Virus record (IMG/VR): IMGVR_UViG_2778261541_000008
Location: 1-31,393 of that record
Reading direction: 5' to 3' (one strand)
DNA: 31,393 nucleotides
DNA from: a virus
Taxonomy: Duplodnaviria > Heunggongvirae > Uroviricota > Caudoviricetes
Part shown: positions 3,142 to 21,218 of the stretch, one piece after another
How the letters are laid out: every line of letters begins with the position of its first letter
How positions within the stretch are numbered: the first letter of the stretch is position 1
The notes under the pieces: generated by a model
The model's input: only the letters and a program-made list of their open reading frames with translations
Told to the model about the DNA's origin: nothing
Database searches by the model: none
Position numbers and translations under genes: made by a program

Positions 3142-3212
3142 CTGACGACTCCAAACAAATGCCCATTGAAGGGCGATGGCTGAATGGTACCGAAAATACG
3201 ACATAAAAAACA

Positions 3213-3229
3213 ATATTTATTAGAGCAAT
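3213..3229 (-). promoter_or_regulatory. P1 C1-repressor-type operator (16/17 match to ATTGCTCTAATAAATTT on the minus strand)
   Basis: Plus strand reads atatttattagagcaat, the reverse complement of the 17-bp asymmetric C1 operator consensus as I recall it, with one mismatch. It sits in the divergent intergenic region directly upstream of the minus-strand operon. Confidence 0.6.
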
Positions 3230-3310
3230 TTTACAATAAGTAAACGCCATGTAGACCACAAACAACCTGAGTTAAAATAACGAAAATCAGAGCAAATAAT
3301 TGGTGATGAC

Positions 3311-3514
3311 GTGGCAAGTATTGCAACAAAAGACAGCATTTGTTCGGGGCACGGAGGATTCCCATCCAGGCCTCCTGTAGAGAGTGAACCACTACTTAAA
3401 GTCAACGGAGTCGAAGTGTTAGTTGATGGTAAGCAATATGCACAATACCGATGGAAACAGTACGCACGGTGGGCAAGCTATATCAACCAGGGCATGGTTT
3501 ACCGTCAATGGTAA
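3311..3514 (+). CDS. Hypothetical small protein (67 aa)
   Basis: ORF with a GTG start in the intergenic region downstream of the operator; no recognisable motifs. Weak call, kept because the locus otherwise has a gene-count gap relative to P1 (upfC position). Confidence 0.3.
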   Translation: MASIATKDSICSGHGGFPSRPPVESEPLLKVNGVEVLVDGKQYAQYRWKQYARWASYINQGMVYRQW

Positions 3515-3601
3515 AGGGATCGTATGCGTTGGTGACCCTGTTTCATGCGGATCTACCGTAGCGTCCGGAGACGGCCTGGTTCAGGTAAGTTAGGAGATAT
3601 C

Positions 3602-4390
3602 ATGCTGGAAAAAGACTACCAGTTATCCGCATATAAAAAATTGGCCGCCGCCGGTGGGATGAAAACACCTGGTGCCATAACATCGGCACGAAACAGTGCT
3701 AACACAGCAAAACTGCTTGCAGAAGAATTGACCGGATTAATTCTGGATACAATTGTCTATCCCGACACTATTACCAGTTATGTTTCAACGATCAGAACAA
3801 CTACAACCGGCTTAACGAACATTGGAGAACTGGCAACTAAGCACGCGGACCTGTTGGCTGGTTATGCAGATCTGTCAATGCTGCTTCAACTCGATATTGG
3901 TTGGGATGTTTACTGCCGTGCTAATGAGCGAGAAGTTTCAGAACTGCCGATCTCTATTGCCATTGGTGATGTGAATATTACTAAATCGCTTGAGGACGCT
4001 GTTAACGCGCTTAATACATCAAGTTTAGTCGCTGCTATGGGGGAGATTAACCAGACCCTTAACACTGGCTCAGGAAGCTCGTCAGGCTCTGGTTCAGGCG
4101 GCGGCACTGCCACTCCCCCACCAACACTAACAGAAGAGCAAATTGAATCTCTGAAAGTAGCAACTGAACAGTTTGGGGTTGTTTTCAACCAGACAACAGC
4201 GCCCACAACTGCGTTACAACAGCAGTATGAACGAGCGAATGAAAGCGCCAACGTAGCCATAACTGCTTATAACCATGCTATCGGTACCGCGCTTGCGGAA
4301 GCATCAGCAAATAAGGCCAGCACAGCCAGCGCAGTTGCCGCTTTGGTTCCTGATTCTGTTCTTGATGAATTAAACAAAGCGGCACAGTAA
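3602..4390 (+). CDS. Hypothetical protein with a Ser/Gly/Thr/Pro-rich linker
   Basis: ORF 3545..4390; start placed at ATG 3602 (MLEKDYQ...) preceded by AGGAG. Contains the low-complexity stretch TGSGSSSGSGSGGGTATPPP. No catalytic motif recognised. Confidence 0.6.
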   Translation: MLEKDYQLSAYKKLAAAGGMKTPGAITSARNSANTAKLLAEELTGLILDTIVYPDTITSYVSTIRTTTTGLTNIGELATKHADLLAGYADLSMLLQLDIGWDVYCRANEREVSELPISIAIGDVNITKSLEDAVNALNTSSLVAAMGEINQTLNTGSGSSSGSGSGGGTATPPPTLTEEQIESLKVATEQFGVVFNQTTAPTTALQQQYERANESANVAITAYNHAIGTALAEASANKASTASAVAALVPDSVLDELNKAAQ

Positions 4391-4429
4391 CAAAGGACTT
4401 CATTGATAATTTTTCTTCAGGAGGAAGAC

Positions 4430-4630
4430 ATGTCATTCTTTTCTACGTTAAAAACAGCTTTGTCTTTGAAGGAGAAACTTGCTGCTACTGGTGTTCTTGT
4501 TCTGATTTGCGCACTTGTTGGTGCTGGGTTTGTATGGGAACGTCATCAGCTAAAGCAAGCCATGGAGAAAATTGGCAGTCTTGATCAGGCTGTTAAGGAA
4601 CGTGATAAGTCAATAATGGATCTTAACTAG
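4430..4630 (+). CDS. Small membrane-anchored protein (N-terminal TM helix plus short charged helix); possible i-spanin N-terminal fragment
   Basis: ATG at 4430 preceded by AGGAGG. Hydrophobic segment LAATGVLVLICALVGAGFVW followed by ERHQLKQAMEKIGSLDQAVKERDK. Ends at a TAG that is in frame with the downstream ORF 4643..4852. Confidence 0.55.
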   Translation: MSFFSTLKTALSLKEKLAATGVLVLICALVGAGFVWERHQLKQAMEKIGSLDQAVKERDKSIMDLN

Positions 4631-4685
4631 GCCATTGAGACGATGAACAAAGCAGAGCAACATTTTCACAGCCAGGAAGTGAAAA

Positions 4686-5018
4686 ATGAATCAGAACAAG
4701 CCAAGTATGCTGACAGGCAAATGGAACGAAAAGCTGAAGTTCAGAAACAACTGGTTGCGGCGGGTAATGTTCGCCAGCGTATTCCTGCTGACACTCAGCG
4801 GTTGCTCCGGGAGTCGATCAGCGAATTTAACGCCGACGCCGACAAAGGTTAACCACCCTGCCCCCAAAAGTGCATTTATGTGCAGGATGCCAGAATTTAG
4901 CAGTGAATATTTTGATGATCTGCCAGCCTATATCCTTGATACAGAAACGATGCTGAAGGGGATTAACAGGAAGAATCGCAACGTTAATGATTACAACCGC
5001 GCTATCAGCGGTAACTAA
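4686..5018 (+). CDS. Lipoprotein (lipobox LTLSGC, Pro/Thr-rich mature N-terminus); position of P1 mlp
   Basis: ATG 4686 preceded by AGGAAG. Signal-like segment RRVMFASVFLLTLSG-C, then SGSRSANLTPTPTKVNHPAP. Reading frame is +1 relative to ORF 4643..4852, which it overlaps. Confidence 0.6.
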   Translation: MNQNKPSMLTGKWNEKLKFRNNWLRRVMFASVFLLTLSGCSGSRSANLTPTPTKVNHPAPKSAFMCRMPEFSSEYFDDLPAYILDTETMLKGINRKNRNVNDYNRAISGN

Positions 5019-5029
5019 AAGGGATTTTT

Positions 5030-5422
5030 ATGTCTGATAAAGTAACAGTAAAGCAAACTATCAACAAAGCGACTTCAATCTACAAAATTGAGCACATCAC
5101 TGTTGGCAAGCCAGGATCTGAACAATACCGTCGTGCTTTCGAGCTTGCCGATCAGCTTGGTTTAAAACACCCGGATTGCATTGAGCATGTATTTCCGACC
5201 TATGCTGATGAGCAATGTACTCATGTTCTTACCGAAGAGGATTTTTTCAGCACTGAAGAACGAGAAGGCGTTGATCGCTGTATTGGTGTGATTTGCTCTT
5301 CAGTGAGTTATGAGTTATTCCCTAATGTCCATGAAGATGGTGGTATTGGATACCAATTCCTGTACGAAGGCGATGAGCTTAAATGTTATGAACATGGTCT
5401 TCTCATCGAAAGCATAGAATAA
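5030..5422 (+). CDS. Hypothetical protein (130 aa), last gene before the replicon
   Basis: Clean ORF with an ATG start, followed immediately by an intrinsic terminator. No domain recognised. Confidence 0.55.
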   Translation: MSDKVTVKQTINKATSIYKIEHITVGKPGSEQYRRAFELADQLGLKHPDCIEHVFPTYADEQCTHVLTEEDFFSTEEREGVDRCIGVICSSVSYELFPNVHEDGGIGYQFLYEGDELKCYEHGLLIESIE

Positions 5423-5436
5423 TACAGCTTCCTTCC

Positions 5437-5461
5437 AACCGGCTTTGTTGGCCGGTTTTTC
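5437..5461 (+). terminator. Rho-independent terminator
   Basis: Stem aaccggc / gccggtt with loop tttgttg, followed by a T-run, directly after the stop of the 5030..5422 gene. Confidence 0.65.
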
Positions 5462-11201: not shown

Positions 11202-12674
11202 ATGTCTCAATATTCAATTCAACAGTCATTAGGTAATGCATCTGGCGTCGCGGTTAGCCCGATCAATGCCGATGCGACGTTATCTACCGGTGTTGCATTA
11301 AATAGCAGCTTGTGGGCTGGTATTGGCGTATTTGCGCGTGGCAAGCCGTTTACTGTTCTTGCGGTTACTGAGTCCAATTACGAAGATGTTCTCGGCGAAC
11401 CGCTGAAGCCGTCTTCCGGCTCACAGTTCGAACCAATTCGCCATGTGTACGAAGCTATTCAGCAAACGTCTGGTTATGTTGTCCGTGCTGTTCCGGATGA
11501 TGCGAAGTTCCCGATTATTATGTTCGATGAATCAGGCGAACCGGCTTACAGTGCGTTGCCATACGGTTCTGAAATTGAACTTGATAGCGGCGAAGCCTTT
11601 GCTATCTACGTTGATGATGGTGATCCGTGTATTTCACCTACTCGTGAGTTAACCATCGAAACGGCAACAGCGGACAGCGCGGGTAATGAACGCTTCCTCT
11701 TAAAACTGACCCAGACGACTTCGCTCGGTGTGGTAACGACCCTGGAGACACACACTGTGTCTTTGGCGGAAGAAGCGAAAGATGACATGGGCCGCTTGTG
11801 TTATCTGCCTACGGCTCTGGAAGCCCGTTCTAAATATCTGCGTGCGGTTAAAGTGCTGAATAATGCGCCGTACATGTACACCGCTGTTCTTGGCTTGGGC
11901 TGCTATGACAATGCGGCTATCACCGCATTAGGTAAAATCTGTGCAGATCGCCTGATTGATGGCTTCTTTGATGTCAAACCGACATTGACGTACACGGAAG
12001 CGATCTCTGCTGTTGAAGATACCGGTTTACTTGGTACCGATTATGTAAGCTGTGCTGTCTATCACTTCCCGTTCTCCTGCAAAGACAAATGGACCCAATC
12101 CCGTGTGGTCTTCGGTCTGTCTGGCTCGGCGTATGCGGCGAAAGCTCGTGGCGTCAAGAAAAACTCTGATGTCGGCGGTTGGCATTACTCACCGGCTGGT
12201 GAAGAACGTGCCGTCATTGCTCGTGCGTCAATTCAACCGCTGTATCCGGAAGATACCCCGGACGAAGAAGCAATGGTCAAGGGCCGTCTCAATAAAGTAT
12301 CTGTTGGCACCTCTGGCCAGATGATCATCGACGATGCTTTAACTTGCTGCACGCAGGATAACTATCTGCACTTCCAGCACGTCCCATCCCTGATGAATGC
12401 AATCAGCCGTTTCTTTGTCCAGTTAGCCCGACAGATGAAGCATAGCCCGGACGGTATTACTGCAGCTGGCCTGACTAAAGGGATGACCAAACTTTTAGAT
12501 CGCTTTGTCGCCTCCGGCGCTCTGGTGGCTCCTCGTGATCCTGATGCTGACGGTACAGAACCGTATGTGCTGAAAGTTACGCAGGCGGAATTCGATAAAT
12601 GGGAAGTAGTCTGGGCCTGCTGCCCGACTGGCGTAGCCCGTCGTATCCAGGGCGTACCGCTGCTTATTAAGTAA
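11202..12674 (+). CDS. Putative contractile tail sheath protein (P1 gene 22 position)
   Basis: 490-aa ORF with an RBS, directly after the capsid gene and upstream of a tube-like gene; size matches myovirus sheath proteins. Assigned by synteny, not by motif. Confidence 0.45.
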   Translation: MSQYSIQQSLGNASGVAVSPINADATLSTGVALNSSLWAGIGVFARGKPFTVLAVTESNYEDVLGEPLKPSSGSQFEPIRHVYEAIQQTSGYVVRAVPDDAKFPIIMFDESGEPAYSALPYGSEIELDSGEAFAIYVDDGDPCISPTRELTIETATADSAGNERFLLKLTQTTSLGVVTTLETHTVSLAEEAKDDMGRLCYLPTALEARSKYLRAVKVLNNAPYMYTAVLGLGCYDNAAITALGKICADRLIDGFFDVKPTLTYTEAISAVEDTGLLGTDYVSCAVYHFPFSCKDKWTQSRVVFGLSGSAYAAKARGVKKNSDVGGWHYSPAGEERAVIARASIQPLYPEDTPDEEAMVKGRLNKVSVGTSGQMIIDDALTCCTQDNYLHFQHVPSLMNAISRFFVQLARQMKHSPDGITAAGLTKGMTKLLDRFVASGALVAPRDPDADGTEPYVLKVTQAEFDKWEVVWACCPTGVARRIQGVPLLIK

Positions 12675-19398: not shown

Positions 19399-19616
19399 AA
19401 ACCCCCCTGAACGTCGGCAGAGAAGGGGAGGCTCCAGTAACTAAGTGAATTGCGCGAGTTAGTTGAAAAACGGGCTGTAAAAATGCAGGGGCCATCAGGC
19501 AATTGAGAGCGTGCTTCGTCTTCTGTTGCTGCGATAACGAAGTGATAGTGGTGTTTTTTACAGGAATAGAAACGCCAGATGAATTCTTGGCGTGCGCAAG
19601 GATTGGCATTAACCAT
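19395..19616 (-). CDS. icd: Icd-like small protein translationally coupled to ant
   Basis: 73 aa, equal to P1 Icd as recalled; GAGG RBS embedded in a sequence complementary to the upstream c4-like element. Confidence 0.55.
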   Translation of the reverse strand: MVNANPCARQEFIWRFYSCKKHHYHFVIAATEDEARSQLPDGPCIFTARFSTNSRNSLSYWSLPFSADVQGGL

Positions 19617-19669
19617 AGTTACGGCCTCACAATCAGGTTTAACAACCTGCTACCCGCTGTCAAACAGGT

Positions 19670-19760
19670 GGCAGGACGTGACAGGGTTGACAGACTGGCG
19701 ATTGTGAAACCAGCAGGCCGAAGCCTCCCCATCACGCCCCACCATAATTTGGGCGTAACG
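19670..19760 (-). ncRNA. c4: c4-like antisense repressor RNA (approximate boundaries)
   Basis: On the minus-strand transcript, GGCCU and CACAAUC (plus-strand 19700-19719) are separated by 7 nt and are exactly complementary to the contiguous GAUUGUG-AGGCC that covers the icd RBS (plus-strand 19621-19637). Ends not determinable by eye. Confidence 0.4.
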
Positions 19761-19930
19761 CGGTTTAACGGACACAAAAATACCGCAATATCGGAAATCT
19801 GCGGTTGTCCGCACAATCATTCAGGCTGTCAAACCTGGTCGTAGAATTTGCTACGACGGCGGAACTATAAGCCTGAACGATTAAAAGGTCAATATGATGC
19901 GAAAAGATAGCATTCGCGACTTAAAAATAC

Positions 19931-19947
19931 AAATTTATTAGAGCATT
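19931..19947 (-). promoter_or_regulatory. C1-type operator at the immunity-I promoter (Op51 equivalent)
   Basis: aaatttattagagcatt, 16/17 to the reverse complement of the operator consensus, in the divergent region between c4/icd/ant and the secreted-protein genes. Confidence 0.65.
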
Positions 19948-20042
19948 GTTTGTTTAATAAATACACAATTGGATCTAATAACCTCTTTTTTTAAAGGCGA
20001 AAATATGTACCCTAAATGGGTTATAAGGCAGGTGAGGTTATA

Positions 20043-20690
20043 ATGAGAAAACTATTACTACCGTTATTATTTATGGCTGGGACTGTTAATGCAGCATCAA
20101 GCGTAAAGGAGATTTGTACCGATTATACGAAATACCTTGGGCACGTTTACGGCTTTGCTGTCAGTCAAGATGAATCCATGCGCAAGAAGTTACTGTCAGA
20201 TATGAAACGCCTTAAACTTTCTGAAGCGATGGTGCAGCAAGAACTGTATAAAGTCGCAACCAACGAAAATGCTAAATATCAATATTCTCGCCTGTTAAAT
20301 CCCGACGCAAACGAGATCAATCGAAGCTCTTTCGATTATATGGTAAAGGCATGCGAAACCGCTCCTGATTTTGCTATTCCTAGCTGGGGTGTGCTGGTGG
20401 CGAGCAATGCCGTTAATAAAGAAGACGTTGGAAGAAATGGCATTGATTCAATCAGAAACTCCCCGGGAATGCGCCATCAAAACGTTCAGGGTACGCTTGA
20501 AGAACGGGCCAGGGGGCCGGGTACAAACTCCCCAATGGGAAACCTCTCCCCGGAGGAATTGCAAGAGTATAACCAACGGATGGAGCAGTATGAGAAAGCT
20601 GCACGCGAAAAAATGGAACAACAAAAAAATGGATCTCTTAATACTTTCCAGCAAGGTTTAAAAGCGCTTAATTTACCCTATGAATGGTGA
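20043..20690 (+). CDS. Secreted/periplasmic protein, candidate superinfection-exclusion (Sim-like) factor carrying a Sit-derived motif
   Basis: Start at ATG 20043 (GTGAGG RBS). Signal peptide MRKLLLPLLFMAGTVNA-AS. C-terminal segment GIDSIRNSPGMRHQNVQGTLEERARGPGT matches two segments near the Sit C-terminus. Locus corresponds to the P1 sim region next to c4. Confidence 0.55.
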   Translation: MRKLLLPLLFMAGTVNAASSVKEICTDYTKYLGHVYGFAVSQDESMRKKLLSDMKRLKLSEAMVQQELYKVATNENAKYQYSRLLNPDANEINRSSFDYMVKACETAPDFAIPSWGVLVASNAVNKEDVGRNGIDSIRNSPGMRHQNVQGTLEERARGPGTNSPMGNLSPEELQEYNQRMEQYEKAAREKMEQQKNGSLNTFQQGLKALNLPYEW

Positions 20691-20741
20691 ATATATGGTG
20701 GTTAACTAATTAAAATATTAATATCCAAAGGAGATAAATTA

Positions 20742-21218
20742 ATGCGCATCAAACGATTTTTACTAGTTCTTGCTTTGCTTACTCCGTTTTCATCAATGGC
20801 AAATGTAAGCAAATGGTCAACCGGCGAGACTCATGGTGTTCGTTCTTATGCTGTTTCCAGCAAAGATAATTATACGCTTACATTTGAGTGCGATGTTGGA
20901 TTTAATAATACGGATCCCAATCAAGTAGGAACACGACTACTCACTCTCATGAAAACAGAACCTGGCGGTGAGTCATTTGATGCTAAAAAAGAACAAATAA
21001 CGCTGAAAGTTGGTGATGATGAATATCCTATCAGTTCTATCGGTTCCTCTGTGGGTGATAGTTACTGGTATGGTTTTTGGTCAGATACCCCTGATATGGA
21101 AGTTAAAACATTCGATGCATACGTAGACGGAAAAAAAATCGCAACATTTACGCTACGTAAGGCCGCAGAGCTTTTCAACGCGGCACCTGAAGATGGCTGC
21201 CTGAAGCGCGCAAAATGA
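20742..21218 (+). CDS. Secreted/periplasmic protein of unknown function
   Basis: AAAGGAG RBS; signal peptide MRIKRFLLVLALLTPFSSMA-NV; 158 aa. Confidence 0.6.
   Translation: MRIKRFLLVLALLTPFSSMANVSKWSTGETHGVRSYAVSSKDNYTLTFECDVGFNNTDPNQVGTRLLTLMKTEPGGESFDAKKEQITLKVGDDEYPISSIGSSVGDSYWYGFWSDTPDMEVKTFDAYVDGKKIATFTLRKAAELFNAAPEDGCLKRAK

Follow-up and report, generated by a model that had tools for sequence, protein, structure and literature searches.

A P1-type ppfA/mlp module, predicted to encode overlapped spanins, is interrupted by a private amber codon in a P1-like phage-plasmid

The 31,393-nucleotide DNA analysed here, referred to below as the window, belongs to a P1-like phage-plasmid of an E. 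coli isolate and forms a contig of 31.4 kb. The region under study is 98.5% identical in DNA to positions 63272–64072 of P1, whose annotation lists ppfA, mlp, upfA, upfB and repA, and by this identity positions 4430–5018 are the ppfA/mlp module of a P1-like element. The operon lies on the plus strand and begins with upfC (3311–3593), which encodes a PAAR-like protein, followed by an intact upfB (3545–4390) directly upstream of ppfA, by the ppfA/mlp pair and by an intact upfA (5030–5422) as the last gene; a hairpin resembling a terminator, with a run of T after it (5437–5457, plus strand), recognized by a consensus match only, separates the operon from oriR/repA. The initial annotation suggested that the pair might be stranded in the maintenance region, but the site between upfB and upfA, adjoining oriR/repA, is its normal and conserved place in P1-like elements. 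Comparison with relatives revealed that upfC is split in the window by the loss of 2 bp between 3444 and 3445 (plus strand), a private deletion which has no exact match among 546 plasmid records and is seen both in the NCBI contig and in the Logan assembly of SRR6413647. This is the second private lesion of the operon, 1.2 kb upstream of the amber codon described below, and 30 other genes compared with P7 contain neither a stop nor a frameshift. A motif built from annotated P7 late promoters, which recovered LP23, LPsit and LPs, detected no P1 late promoter upstream of upfC to ppfA, a result that counts against the interpretation favoured below. Matches in a sigma-70 scan were not commoner than in shuffled sequence, and the P1 annotation lists upstream of the operon only promoters of the sigma-70 type, which are predicted. 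No tRNA gene, suppressor tRNA genes included, was found within the window by ARAGORN.

The i-spanin frame, ppfA, opens at the ATG at position 4430, preceded by a strong Shine–Dalgarno sequence, AGGAGG (4419–4424, plus strand), which is also the one given for P1 gp064 (Kongari et al., 2018, Table S1). The 5′ part of the gene (4430–4630, plus strand) comprises codons 1–66 and the amber codon TAG at 4628–4630; its 66-aa product, WP_244567404.1 (E. coli), occurs on one NCBI contig and on its own matches phrog_89 at 2e-8. The open reading frame at 4643–4852 is in the same frame as position 4430 (213 nt, or 71 codons, away), and beyond the TAG the ppfA frame is open as far as the TAA at 4850–4852, giving a read-through product of 140 aa, which contains LVAAGNVRQRIPADTQRLL. 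The 3′ part (4631–4852, plus strand; codons 68–140 and the TAA), which would be untranslated in a non-suppressing host, matches phrog_89 at 4.8e-9 on its own and is the most conserved portion of the protein, holding 33 of the 58 invariant alignment columns. In the annotation of the contig, the two halves of this one pseudogene appear as 66-aa and 69-aa 'hypothetical proteins'. PpfA in the window differs from that of P1 by three residues and the stop; its V35, M45 and A68 are not private, all three being shared by an intact allele, P0031.

Residues 17–35 of PpfA (LAATGVLVLICALVGAGFV, encoded at 4478–4534 on the plus strand) form the sole strongly hydrophobic stretch and the predicted single, N-terminal transmembrane helix, with a maximum Kyte–Doolittle 19-mer mean of 2.48, similar to the peaks of P2 LysB (3.12) and lambda Rz (2.63). 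The residues K8, K14 and K16 on its N-terminal side suggest a type II (N-in/C-out) orientation. The initial reading of this frame was correct to the base with regard to the 66-aa open reading frame ending in TAG and its in-frame continuation, and its proposed read-through membrane protein of about 140 aa proved to be one of 140 aa with a single hydrophobic stretch. An AF2 model of PpfA displays a helix at residues 13–110, a loop at 111–119 and a second helix at 120–137; with a mean pLDDT of 65.7 and a pTM of 0.25 it was used for secondary structure only, and a fold search was left out because matches to a low-confidence long helix would be meaningless. In this model the periplasmic domain is mostly α-helical, with two segments joined by a linker, as overlapped spanins require.

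The o-spanin frame, mlp, has the Shine–Dalgarno sequence AGGAAG (4674–4679, plus strand; Kongari et al., 2018, Table S1) and encodes a precursor of 110 aa in the +1 frame relative to ppfA (4686–5018, plus strand), recognized as an o-spanin from its matches to phrog_30284, phrog_456 and LysC. Its ATG at 4686 lies inside ppfA and its end 166 nt past that of ppfA, the gene coordinates defining a dual-coding overlap of 167 nt (4686–4852, plus strand). A regular-expression scan located the lipobox LSGC at Mlp residues 37–40 (4794–4805, plus strand), with Cys40 as the predicted lipidated residue and Ser at +2; these positions agree with the +1-frame lipoprotein described initially as starting inside the ppfA frame and running past it. 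For the P1 protein, LipoP cleavage is given after residue 39 (Kongari et al., 2018, Table S1; PMC6139136). Mlp does not carry the Lol-avoidance Asp at +2, its signal sequence is unusually long (39 residues), and the start of the mature protein is rich in Pro and Thr (TPTPTKVNHPAP). The protein differs from P1 Mlp at one of its 110 residues. A +1-frame lipoprotein with the lipobox LSAC is retained in phage JK004 of Cronobacter, whose nucleotide identity is 78%; since the layout is kept there and both products match spanin profile families, it is not a chance pattern of open reading frames. Many records of P1-like elements annotate the o-spanin as a 46-aa fragment devoid of the lipobox, or omit it.

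Profile searches had been proposed as a check of spanin similarity. The read-through form of PpfA matches phrog_89, a family of Rz-like spanins, at 1.7e-25 over residues 21–139, and P2 LysB matches the same family at 5.8e-61. Mlp matches phrog_30284 at 9e-78 and phrog_456 at 8.9e-6, and P2 LysC matches both families; by BLASTP, Mlp aligns with P2 LysC over 68 aa at 37% identity (E = 1e-7). The top NCBIfam matches are LysB (TIGR03495) for PpfA and LysC (NF038368) for Mlp, both below the curated cut-offs (18.7 bits against 92.75 and 15.2 bits against 27, respectively). An hhalign comparison of the PpfA ortholog alignment with the single P2 LysB sequence was not significant (probability 1.3%), and a protein search with PpfA returned P1-type orthologs only and thus did not connect it independently with LysB relatives. 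A Pfam scan of both products and of both halves of PpfA yielded weak non-specific coiled-coil matches and no spanin family, and PpfA had no match to the Pfam Rz family at E ≤ 1. The resemblance to the AAGRRRL region of lambda Rz, raised in the initial annotation, was pursued as a possible sign of homology and dropped, since hhalign against lambda Rz was not significant (probability 1.7%); the lambda Rz family, phrog_13, is absent from the PpfA matches, while PpfA and P2 LysB fall together in phrog_89. Profile evidence groups ppfA/mlp with P2 LysB/LysC and not with lambda Rz. The pair displays the features of the overlapped class, namely an N-terminal transmembrane helix, a lipobox with Ser at +2 and a +1-frame overlap extending past the i-spanin, so that profiles and architecture agree with the P2 lysB/lysC layout proposed at the outset.

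That the P1 genes are predicted spanins is already in the literature and is not new (Kongari et al., 2018, Table S1, PMC6139136; Bednarek et al., 2022, PMC9025707). P1 gp064 and gp063 are catalogued as an overlapped i-/o-spanin pair of family 'P1' (PMC6139136), and in a passage of Bednarek et al. (2022) the identification of the P1 spanins is credited to Summer et al. (2007) (PMC9025707). According to the same work, the spanin role of P1 ppfA/mlp is a prediction only, and shaken cultures can lyse without spanins (PMC9025707). In a CRISPRi knock-down, ppfA and mlp were nonessential (PMC10695390).

The stop in ppfA goes back to one C→T transition at 4628, private to this contig, which converts CAG (Gln67) into TAG at codon 67 (4628–4630, plus strand) and leaves a 66-aa PpfA stub in the window copy. 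An alignment of relatives has CAG at this codon in all of those examined, including P1, P7, JL22, MH422554 and CP042617.1, and C at the position equivalent to 4628 in P1, MH422554, JL22, CP042617.1 and L010. The 61-mer bearing the TAG (4598–4658) has no exact match in 543 plasmid records and 595 complete E. coli genome records. The same allele with Gln67 intact, P0031, occurs on eight contigs and encodes an otherwise identical 140-aa product, and the nearest plasmid differs from the window region at two of 801 bases. All 18 aligned orthologs are 140 aa long, at identities down to 58% (those at 59–64% included), with Q, T, A or V at residue 67. The intact P0031 allele and the 140-aa orthologs bear out the view that one i-spanin gene has been split by a single amber codon, and of the alternatives initially offered, decay is the one upheld. 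The refuting condition named at the outset was that orthologs uniformly carry the stop with no conservation downstream; they uniformly lack it, the opposite outcome, and amber regulation is not sustained. Over a stretch of 6,201 bp that takes in the TAG, an independent Logan assembly (SRR6413647) shows 100% identity to the window, and at the level of assembly the stop is real; this assembly and the NCBI contig may share reads.

The truncation preserves the membrane anchor and 31 of the 104 periplasmic residues of PpfA and costs it 74. With these 74 of 104 residues and 33 of 58 invariant positions gone, the copy is most likely to be spanin-null. One of the two subunit frames, that of the i-spanin, is broken by the TAG at codon 67, and on the evidence of its sequence the window ppfA is a pseudogenised member of the overlapped spanin class.

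The most probable interpretation, to which we assign a probability of roughly 85%, is that a known P1-type module, predicted to encode spanins, was broken by a private nonsense mutation, as an ordinary and recent loss of function and not as a regulatory device. By analogy with lambda Rz/Rz1, intact PpfA would sit in the inner membrane as a type II protein whose long periplasmic domain is mostly helical and intact Mlp would be an outer-membrane lipoprotein, the two spanning the periplasm and, after the endolysin has cleared the peptidoglycan, disrupting the outer membrane by fusion of the inner and outer membranes. In the window the i-spanin would be null and Mlp would probably still be made, partnerless, and the final lysis step would be expected to fail under low-shear, Mg2+-rich conditions. 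Shaken cultures and plaque assays do not require spanins, which would also be unselected during plasmid life, and such a defect may be tolerated for these reasons; the lack of other decay downstream suggests that the mutation is recent. Other natural isolates carry independent truncations of ppfA.

The stop is a difference of one base in one isolate only and could be a sequencing or assembly error masking an intact CAG allele. Short-read assemblies seldom contain consensus substitution errors. The TAG lies within 6.2 kb over which the NCBI contig and the separate Logan assembly (SRR6413647) agree, and the upfC lesion, present in both, is better accounted for by genuine mutational decay than by an isolated base-call error; such an error is therefore very unlikely. 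A functional amber, rendering spanin synthesis regulated or host-dependent through read-through or a suppressor host, would be in keeping with the fully intact frame downstream, and a suppressor of the supE type, which inserts glutamine, would recover the wild-type protein from precisely this change of CAG to TAG. Suppressors are rare in natural isolates, however, and basal read-through of UAG is low. The amber is missing from every relative examined, the window holds no tRNA gene, and no conserved feature sets the context of the stop apart from that of the CAG alleles, the nearest of which is so close in sequence; such a function is scarcely credible. It is very unlikely that ppfA and mlp are envelope proteins acting outside lysis, for instance in exclusion or in the plasmid state, with a spanin-like topology only. 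Their distance from lyz and lydA/lydB and their position beside the plasmid replicon would suit such a role, as would the lack of a late-promoter motif, the CRISPRi result, the predicted status of the spanin role (PMC9025707), NCBIfam scores below the curated cut-offs and the absence of a Pfam match. On the other hand, PpfA and Mlp each independently match the P2 LysB/LysC families and show all of the architectural features of overlapped spanins, PMC9025707 and PMC6139136 report no second spanin pair for P1, and spanins of other phages are likewise dispensable in laboratory assays (PMC9025707).

The loss might also be adaptive, with selection on P1-like plasmids favouring inactivation of the spanin or of the entire upfC–upfA operon, either because its low-level sigma-70 expression could be costly or because a lysis-impaired element could be a better plasmid. 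Two private inactivating lesions within one 2.1-kb operon, with the 30 genes compared with P7 undamaged, are compatible with this, as are the sigma-70-type promoters that are alone predicted upstream in P1, with no late-promoter motif found. Independent disruptions are also known elsewhere: ppfA is joined to an IS91-family element at four positions, has a stop after codon 81 or, in further isolates, carries frameshifts or an in-frame deletion. Nevertheless, intact 140-aa PpfA occurs on more than 3,000 contigs against tens for each truncated form, many 'truncated' PpfA proteins are contig-end artefacts, and two lesions in CRISPRi-nonessential genes are what neutral decay would be expected to produce. 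Moreover, the 21 most conserved genes of 54 P1-like phage-plasmids include ppfA, mlp and upfC (PMC9603915), and adaptive loss is highly improbable. The broader claim that ppfA is recurrently inactivated in nature by selection for lysis-impaired elements, turning phage into plain plasmid, and not by neutral decay, draws on the amber codon, the codon-81 stop of another lineage, the IS91-family junctions, frameshift fusions of ppfA with mlp and the upfC frameshift, and is distinctly unlikely.

Beyond annotation, the significance of a one-off mutation in a catalogued system from a single isolate is small. The window ppfA is an amber allele from nature whose suppression should yield the wild-type protein, and it would be a convenient conditional mutant for P1 spanin function. 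Only domestication would carry wider interest: an enrichment of ppfA disruptions among P1-like plasmids, if real, would shed light on the loss of lytic competence by phage-plasmids.

Among known systems, the closest are the ppfA (gp064) and mlp (gp063) genes of P1 and P7, which are the same two genes at an identical site, flanked by upfB and upfA; the window differs from them by the TAG at codon 67 and the 2-bp deletion in upfC, both private to the contig. In P2 LysB/LysC, as in ppfA/mlp, the o-spanin begins within the i-spanin in another frame and ends beyond it, with an overlap of 146 nt in lysB/lysC and 167 nt in ppfA/mlp, i-spanins of 141 aa (LysB) and 140 aa (PpfA) and the families phrog_89 and phrog_456/30284 common to both pairs. 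While lysB/lysC belong to a lysis cassette, after the holin, endolysin and lysA genes, the P1-type pair resides in an unlinked operon. Lambda Rz/Rz1, the pair characterised by experiment, resemble the products of ppfA/mlp in predicted topology and in the sharing of tasks between a type II helical inner-membrane protein and a small Pro-rich outer-membrane lipoprotein from overlapping frames, but belong to other families, phrog_13 and phrog_3198, and the VAAGxxR similarity is not significant. Lambda Rz forms intermolecular disulfides. PpfA has no periplasmic cysteine (Kongari et al., 2018, Table S1). In addition, lambda Rz1 is fully embedded, whereas mlp extends beyond ppfA. Laboratory amber mutants of lambda Rz produce a nonsense-truncated i-spanin, are suppressible in amber-suppressor hosts and, where divalent cations keep the outer membrane stable, are blocked in lysis at that membrane. 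By analogy, the same phenotype would be expected of the window ppfA, an allele that arose spontaneously in a natural isolate.

The ppfA gene of the window (+ strand) is preceded by a Shine-Dalgarno sequence, AGGAGG (4419-4424), and is read from an ATG at 4430 as a 66-codon frame ending at a TAG codon (4628-4630), beyond which the frame stays open up to a TAA at 4850-4852; the ORF at 4643..4852 is the tail of this frame, starting at its next ATG. Conceptual read-through yields a protein of 140 aa, the only strongly hydrophobic segment of which spans residues 17-35 (Kyte-Doolittle 2.48). In the +1 frame of the same strand, mlp forms an intact 110-aa ORF (4686..5018) that overlaps ppfA by 167 nt, starts 56 nt downstream of the amber codon with its own Shine-Dalgarno sequence (AGGAAG, 4674-4679, +) and encodes a lipoprotein with an LSGC lipobox (Cys40, Ser at +2) and a mature part that begins rich in Pro and Thr. 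Upon rechecking, the frames, the stop and the lipoprotein ORF described in the initial annotation were found to be exact to the base. Database annotation of the o-spanin is uneven: in MH422554 and JL22 (2079-2219 of both regions compared) it is a 46-aa 'Rz1' beginning downstream of the lipobox, in the record of Cronobacter phage JK004 a 44-aa fragment (2725-2859 of the region), and in most plasmid records mlp is not called, while RefSeq labels mlp 'Rz-like spanin' and keeps ppfA as 'PpfA' (L001, 1887-2219).

In P1, ppfA comprises 140 uninterrupted codons, with CAG at codon 67; the window carries a C-to-T change at 4628, a position that is C in MH422554, JL22, the Logan contig L010 and CP042617.1, the closest plasmid, which differs from the window at only two of 801 bases (4533 and 4628). 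Neither the 543 matching plasmid records nor the 595 matching complete E. coli genome records contain the exact 61-mer centred on the stop; all of them differ from it by at least one mismatch. With Gln67 restored, PpfA of the window is exactly an intact natural 140-aa product found on eight contigs, so that the window allele is one step away from an existing one. The 66-aa stub is identical to WP_244567404.1, a 'hypothetical protein [Escherichia coli]' found on one NCBI contig. Across 6,201 bp, TAG included, the Logan assembly of SRR6413647 shows 100% identity with the window; the stop is therefore reproducible at the assembly level, both assemblies possibly deriving from the same reads.

The initial annotation had entertained an amber-regulated gene, for which the open frame beyond the stop could speak. 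Rather than being uniformly carried by orthologs, the stop is absent from all of those compared: the uninterrupted frame is present in the P1-like relatives, and 18 of 18 orthologs, down to 58% identity and including proteins from Salmonella, Cronobacter and Klebsiella aerogenes, are 140 aa long, with Q, T, A or V at residue 67. With such uniformity, amber regulation as a conserved design is ruled out, and what remains is a nonsense mutation of recent date. A glutamine-inserting suppressor would give back wild-type PpfA; there is no sign of such a host, and a search for tRNA genes within the window found none. Judging by these comparisons, the change from Gln67 to amber is a private and recent nonsense mutation.

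In an AlphaFold2 model of PpfA, which is of low confidence (pLDDT 65.7) and was used at the level of secondary structure, a helix (13-110), a loop (111-119) and a second helix (120-137) are predicted, an arrangement consistent with i-spanins, whose periplasmic domain comprises two helices. The amber codon falls midway in the long periplasmic helix. Of the 104 periplasmic residues, 74 are lost with the truncation, as are 33 of the 58 positions that do not vary among the aligned orthologs. By analogy with the lambda model (PMC6139136; PMC9025707), the stub would be unable to reach or bind the o-spanin, precluding formation of the complex that, once the peptidoglycan is degraded, fuses the inner membrane with the outer one. 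Induced cells would be expected to arrest as fragile spheres under low shear, with divalent cations stabilizing the outer membrane. Re-initiation at ATG 4643 would yield a cytoplasmic fragment and, as this would carry no membrane anchor, no rescue. The loss is probably tolerable, because neither shaken cultures nor plaque assays require spanins, which would also be under no selection in the plasmid state. Most likely, then, this ppfA copy is a pseudogene that leaves the element spanin-null, the P1-like phage-plasmid of E. coli being largely intact in other respects.

Many truncated PpfA variants occur in the protein collection, including a form with Ser81 as its last residue (14 contigs), a 121-aa form with an in-frame deletion, forms joined to foreign sequence after residues 57, 73, 89 and 99 (P0004, P0006, P0066 and P0108) and 195-aa PpfA-Mlp fusion ORFs resulting from 1-nt deletions in the overlap (P0047, P0073, P0085 and P0091). 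In these forms, which come from other E. coli isolates, ppfA runs into the end of an IS91-family element (CCACGGCAGCCTGGCGGCTGCAAA...), and the junctions lie at or beside GAAC tetranucleotides, the IS91 target. In contig L009 (2281-2622) the junction follows GGAAC at codon 99, and the foreign sequence is elsewhere found directly upstream of an IS91-family transposase (L011, 3501-5038); the junction at E89 contains one extra Glu codon. The 1-nt deletions, one of which removes an A of AAA (window 4842-4844) in L010 (783-1370), occur at differing points in several assemblies, mostly from Logan, and may reflect either genuine frameshift mutations or errors in sequencing; because their positions differ, programmed frameshifting at the overlap appears unlikely. 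Intact PpfA is far commoner (more than 3,000 contigs versus tens per variant). Many 'partial' proteins are contig-end artefacts and the tally covers ppfA alone, for which reason an enrichment of ppfA lesions in nature is taken as unproven and considered improbable.

With phage P1, P7 and other Punavirus records the ppfA/mlp region shares 98.1-98.5% identity, and it matches more than 600 P1-like plasmids from E. coli, Salmonella and Klebsiella. In the P1 annotation, ppfA (gp064) and mlp (gp063) lie between upfB and upfA, adjoining oriR/repA, and they occupy this location also in P7, JL22, MH422554 and the distant JK004, in which, at 78% DNA identity, the +1-frame lipoprotein is retained with an LSAC lipobox. 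Given this conserved location, and contrary to what had been suggested, the pair is not stranded in the maintenance region. A tblastn comparison of 33 P7 proteins with the window revealed an in-frame stop in ppfA alone; 30 of the 33 genes have neither stop nor frameshift, and 29 of the 30 align from end to end, while the alignment of dam stops at residue 605 of 672. For two genes specific to P7 this search found no counterpart in the window. The only other disrupted gene is the PAAR-like upfC (3311-3593), first of the same operon, in which the loss of 2 bp between 3444 and 3445 (GC, relative to P1, P7, JL22, MH422554 and CP042617.1) shifts the frame. This deletion is also private, with no exact match in 546 plasmid records, and recurs in the Logan contig from SRR6413647. 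The two private lesions in a 2.1-kb operon of genes scored nonessential by CRISPRi have the look of neutral decay of dispensable genes, which at n = 2 is indistinguishable from selection. In CP042617.1, a 1-nt insertion near the end of upfC (L004 ~775-790; GACGGCTCTGG versus GACGGCCTGG) brings the end of the gene into frame with upfB, which overlaps it, predicting a UpfC-UpfB fusion.

A terminator-like hairpin (5437-5457) closes the operon ahead of oriR. A late-promoter motif (-22 box plus -10) was modelled on the late promoters annotated in P7; in the window it picks up LP23 (9366), LPsit (21228) and LPs (29488), and has no match upstream of upfC, upfB and ppfA (3142-4430), an operon for which the P1 annotation holds predicted sigma-70 promoters only. 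Early or constitutive expression would be compatible with spanin function, since intact peptidoglycan holds spanins in check. Elsewhere in the window, the dmt/dam methyltransferase ORF (133-1962, -) encodes 609 aa versus 672 aa in P7, its similarity to P1 and P7 ending at ~148, so that its C-terminus and the left contig end are unlike both reference phages. Tail-sheath gene 22 (11202-12674) encodes 490 aa versus 529 in P7, an in-frame length difference (91.9% identity with gaps). No counterpart of P7 upf50.5 and upf50.0 is present at 19503-21218; different ORFs (20016-20690 and 20742-21218) lie between icd/c4 and LPsit, corresponding to the variable sim region of P1-like plasmids (PMC9603915).

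The spanin identity of P1 ppfA/mlp is already in the literature as a prediction. Kongari et al. (2018) list the P1 and P7 spanins in their Table S1 under architecture 'ovl' and family 'P1', with gp064/Upf62.7 as i-spanin and gp063/Upf62.4 as o-spanin, the latter with the remarks 'too long signal sequence' and LipoP cleavage at residue 39 (PMC6139136). Bednarek et al. (2022) describe the putative P1 spanin genes as partly overlapping and located in an unlinked operon, interchanging the o- and i- labels in the text; they credit the assignment, by predicted features, to Summer et al. (2007) (PMC9025707). Together with upfA, upfB and upfC, both genes were nonessential for P1 plaque formation in a CRISPRi screen (PMC10695390), and mlp, ppfA and upfC are among 21 extremely conserved genes in 54 P1-like phage-plasmids (PMC9603915).

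Both products matched spanin profile families. Read-through PpfA matched phrog_89 (Rz-like spanin; 1.7e-25, residues 21-139), as did each half separately, and Mlp matched phrog_30284 (9e-78) and phrog_456 (8.9e-6). The top NCBIfam matches, TIGR03495 (LysB) for PpfA (E=0.0017) and NF038368 (LysC) for Mlp (E=0.018), were far under the cut-off, and a Pfam search of both proteins returned nothing specific. Aligning PpfA by hhalign with a single LysB or a single Rz sequence gave no significance, leaving the AAGRRRL likeness to lambda Rz seen in the initial annotation unsupported; of that interpretation, a decayed, P2-type spanin pair stands. Mlp is 37% identical to P2 LysC over 68 aa (BLASTP, E=1e-7), and by these matches the pair groups with P2 LysB/LysC, at a greater distance than equivalog. 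P2 LysB (phrog_89, 5.8e-61) and LysC (phrog_456, 1.7e-31; phrog_30284, 5.4e-4) share their PHROG families with PpfA and Mlp, whereas lambda Rz and Rz1 fall into different ones, phrog_13 and phrog_3198, respectively.
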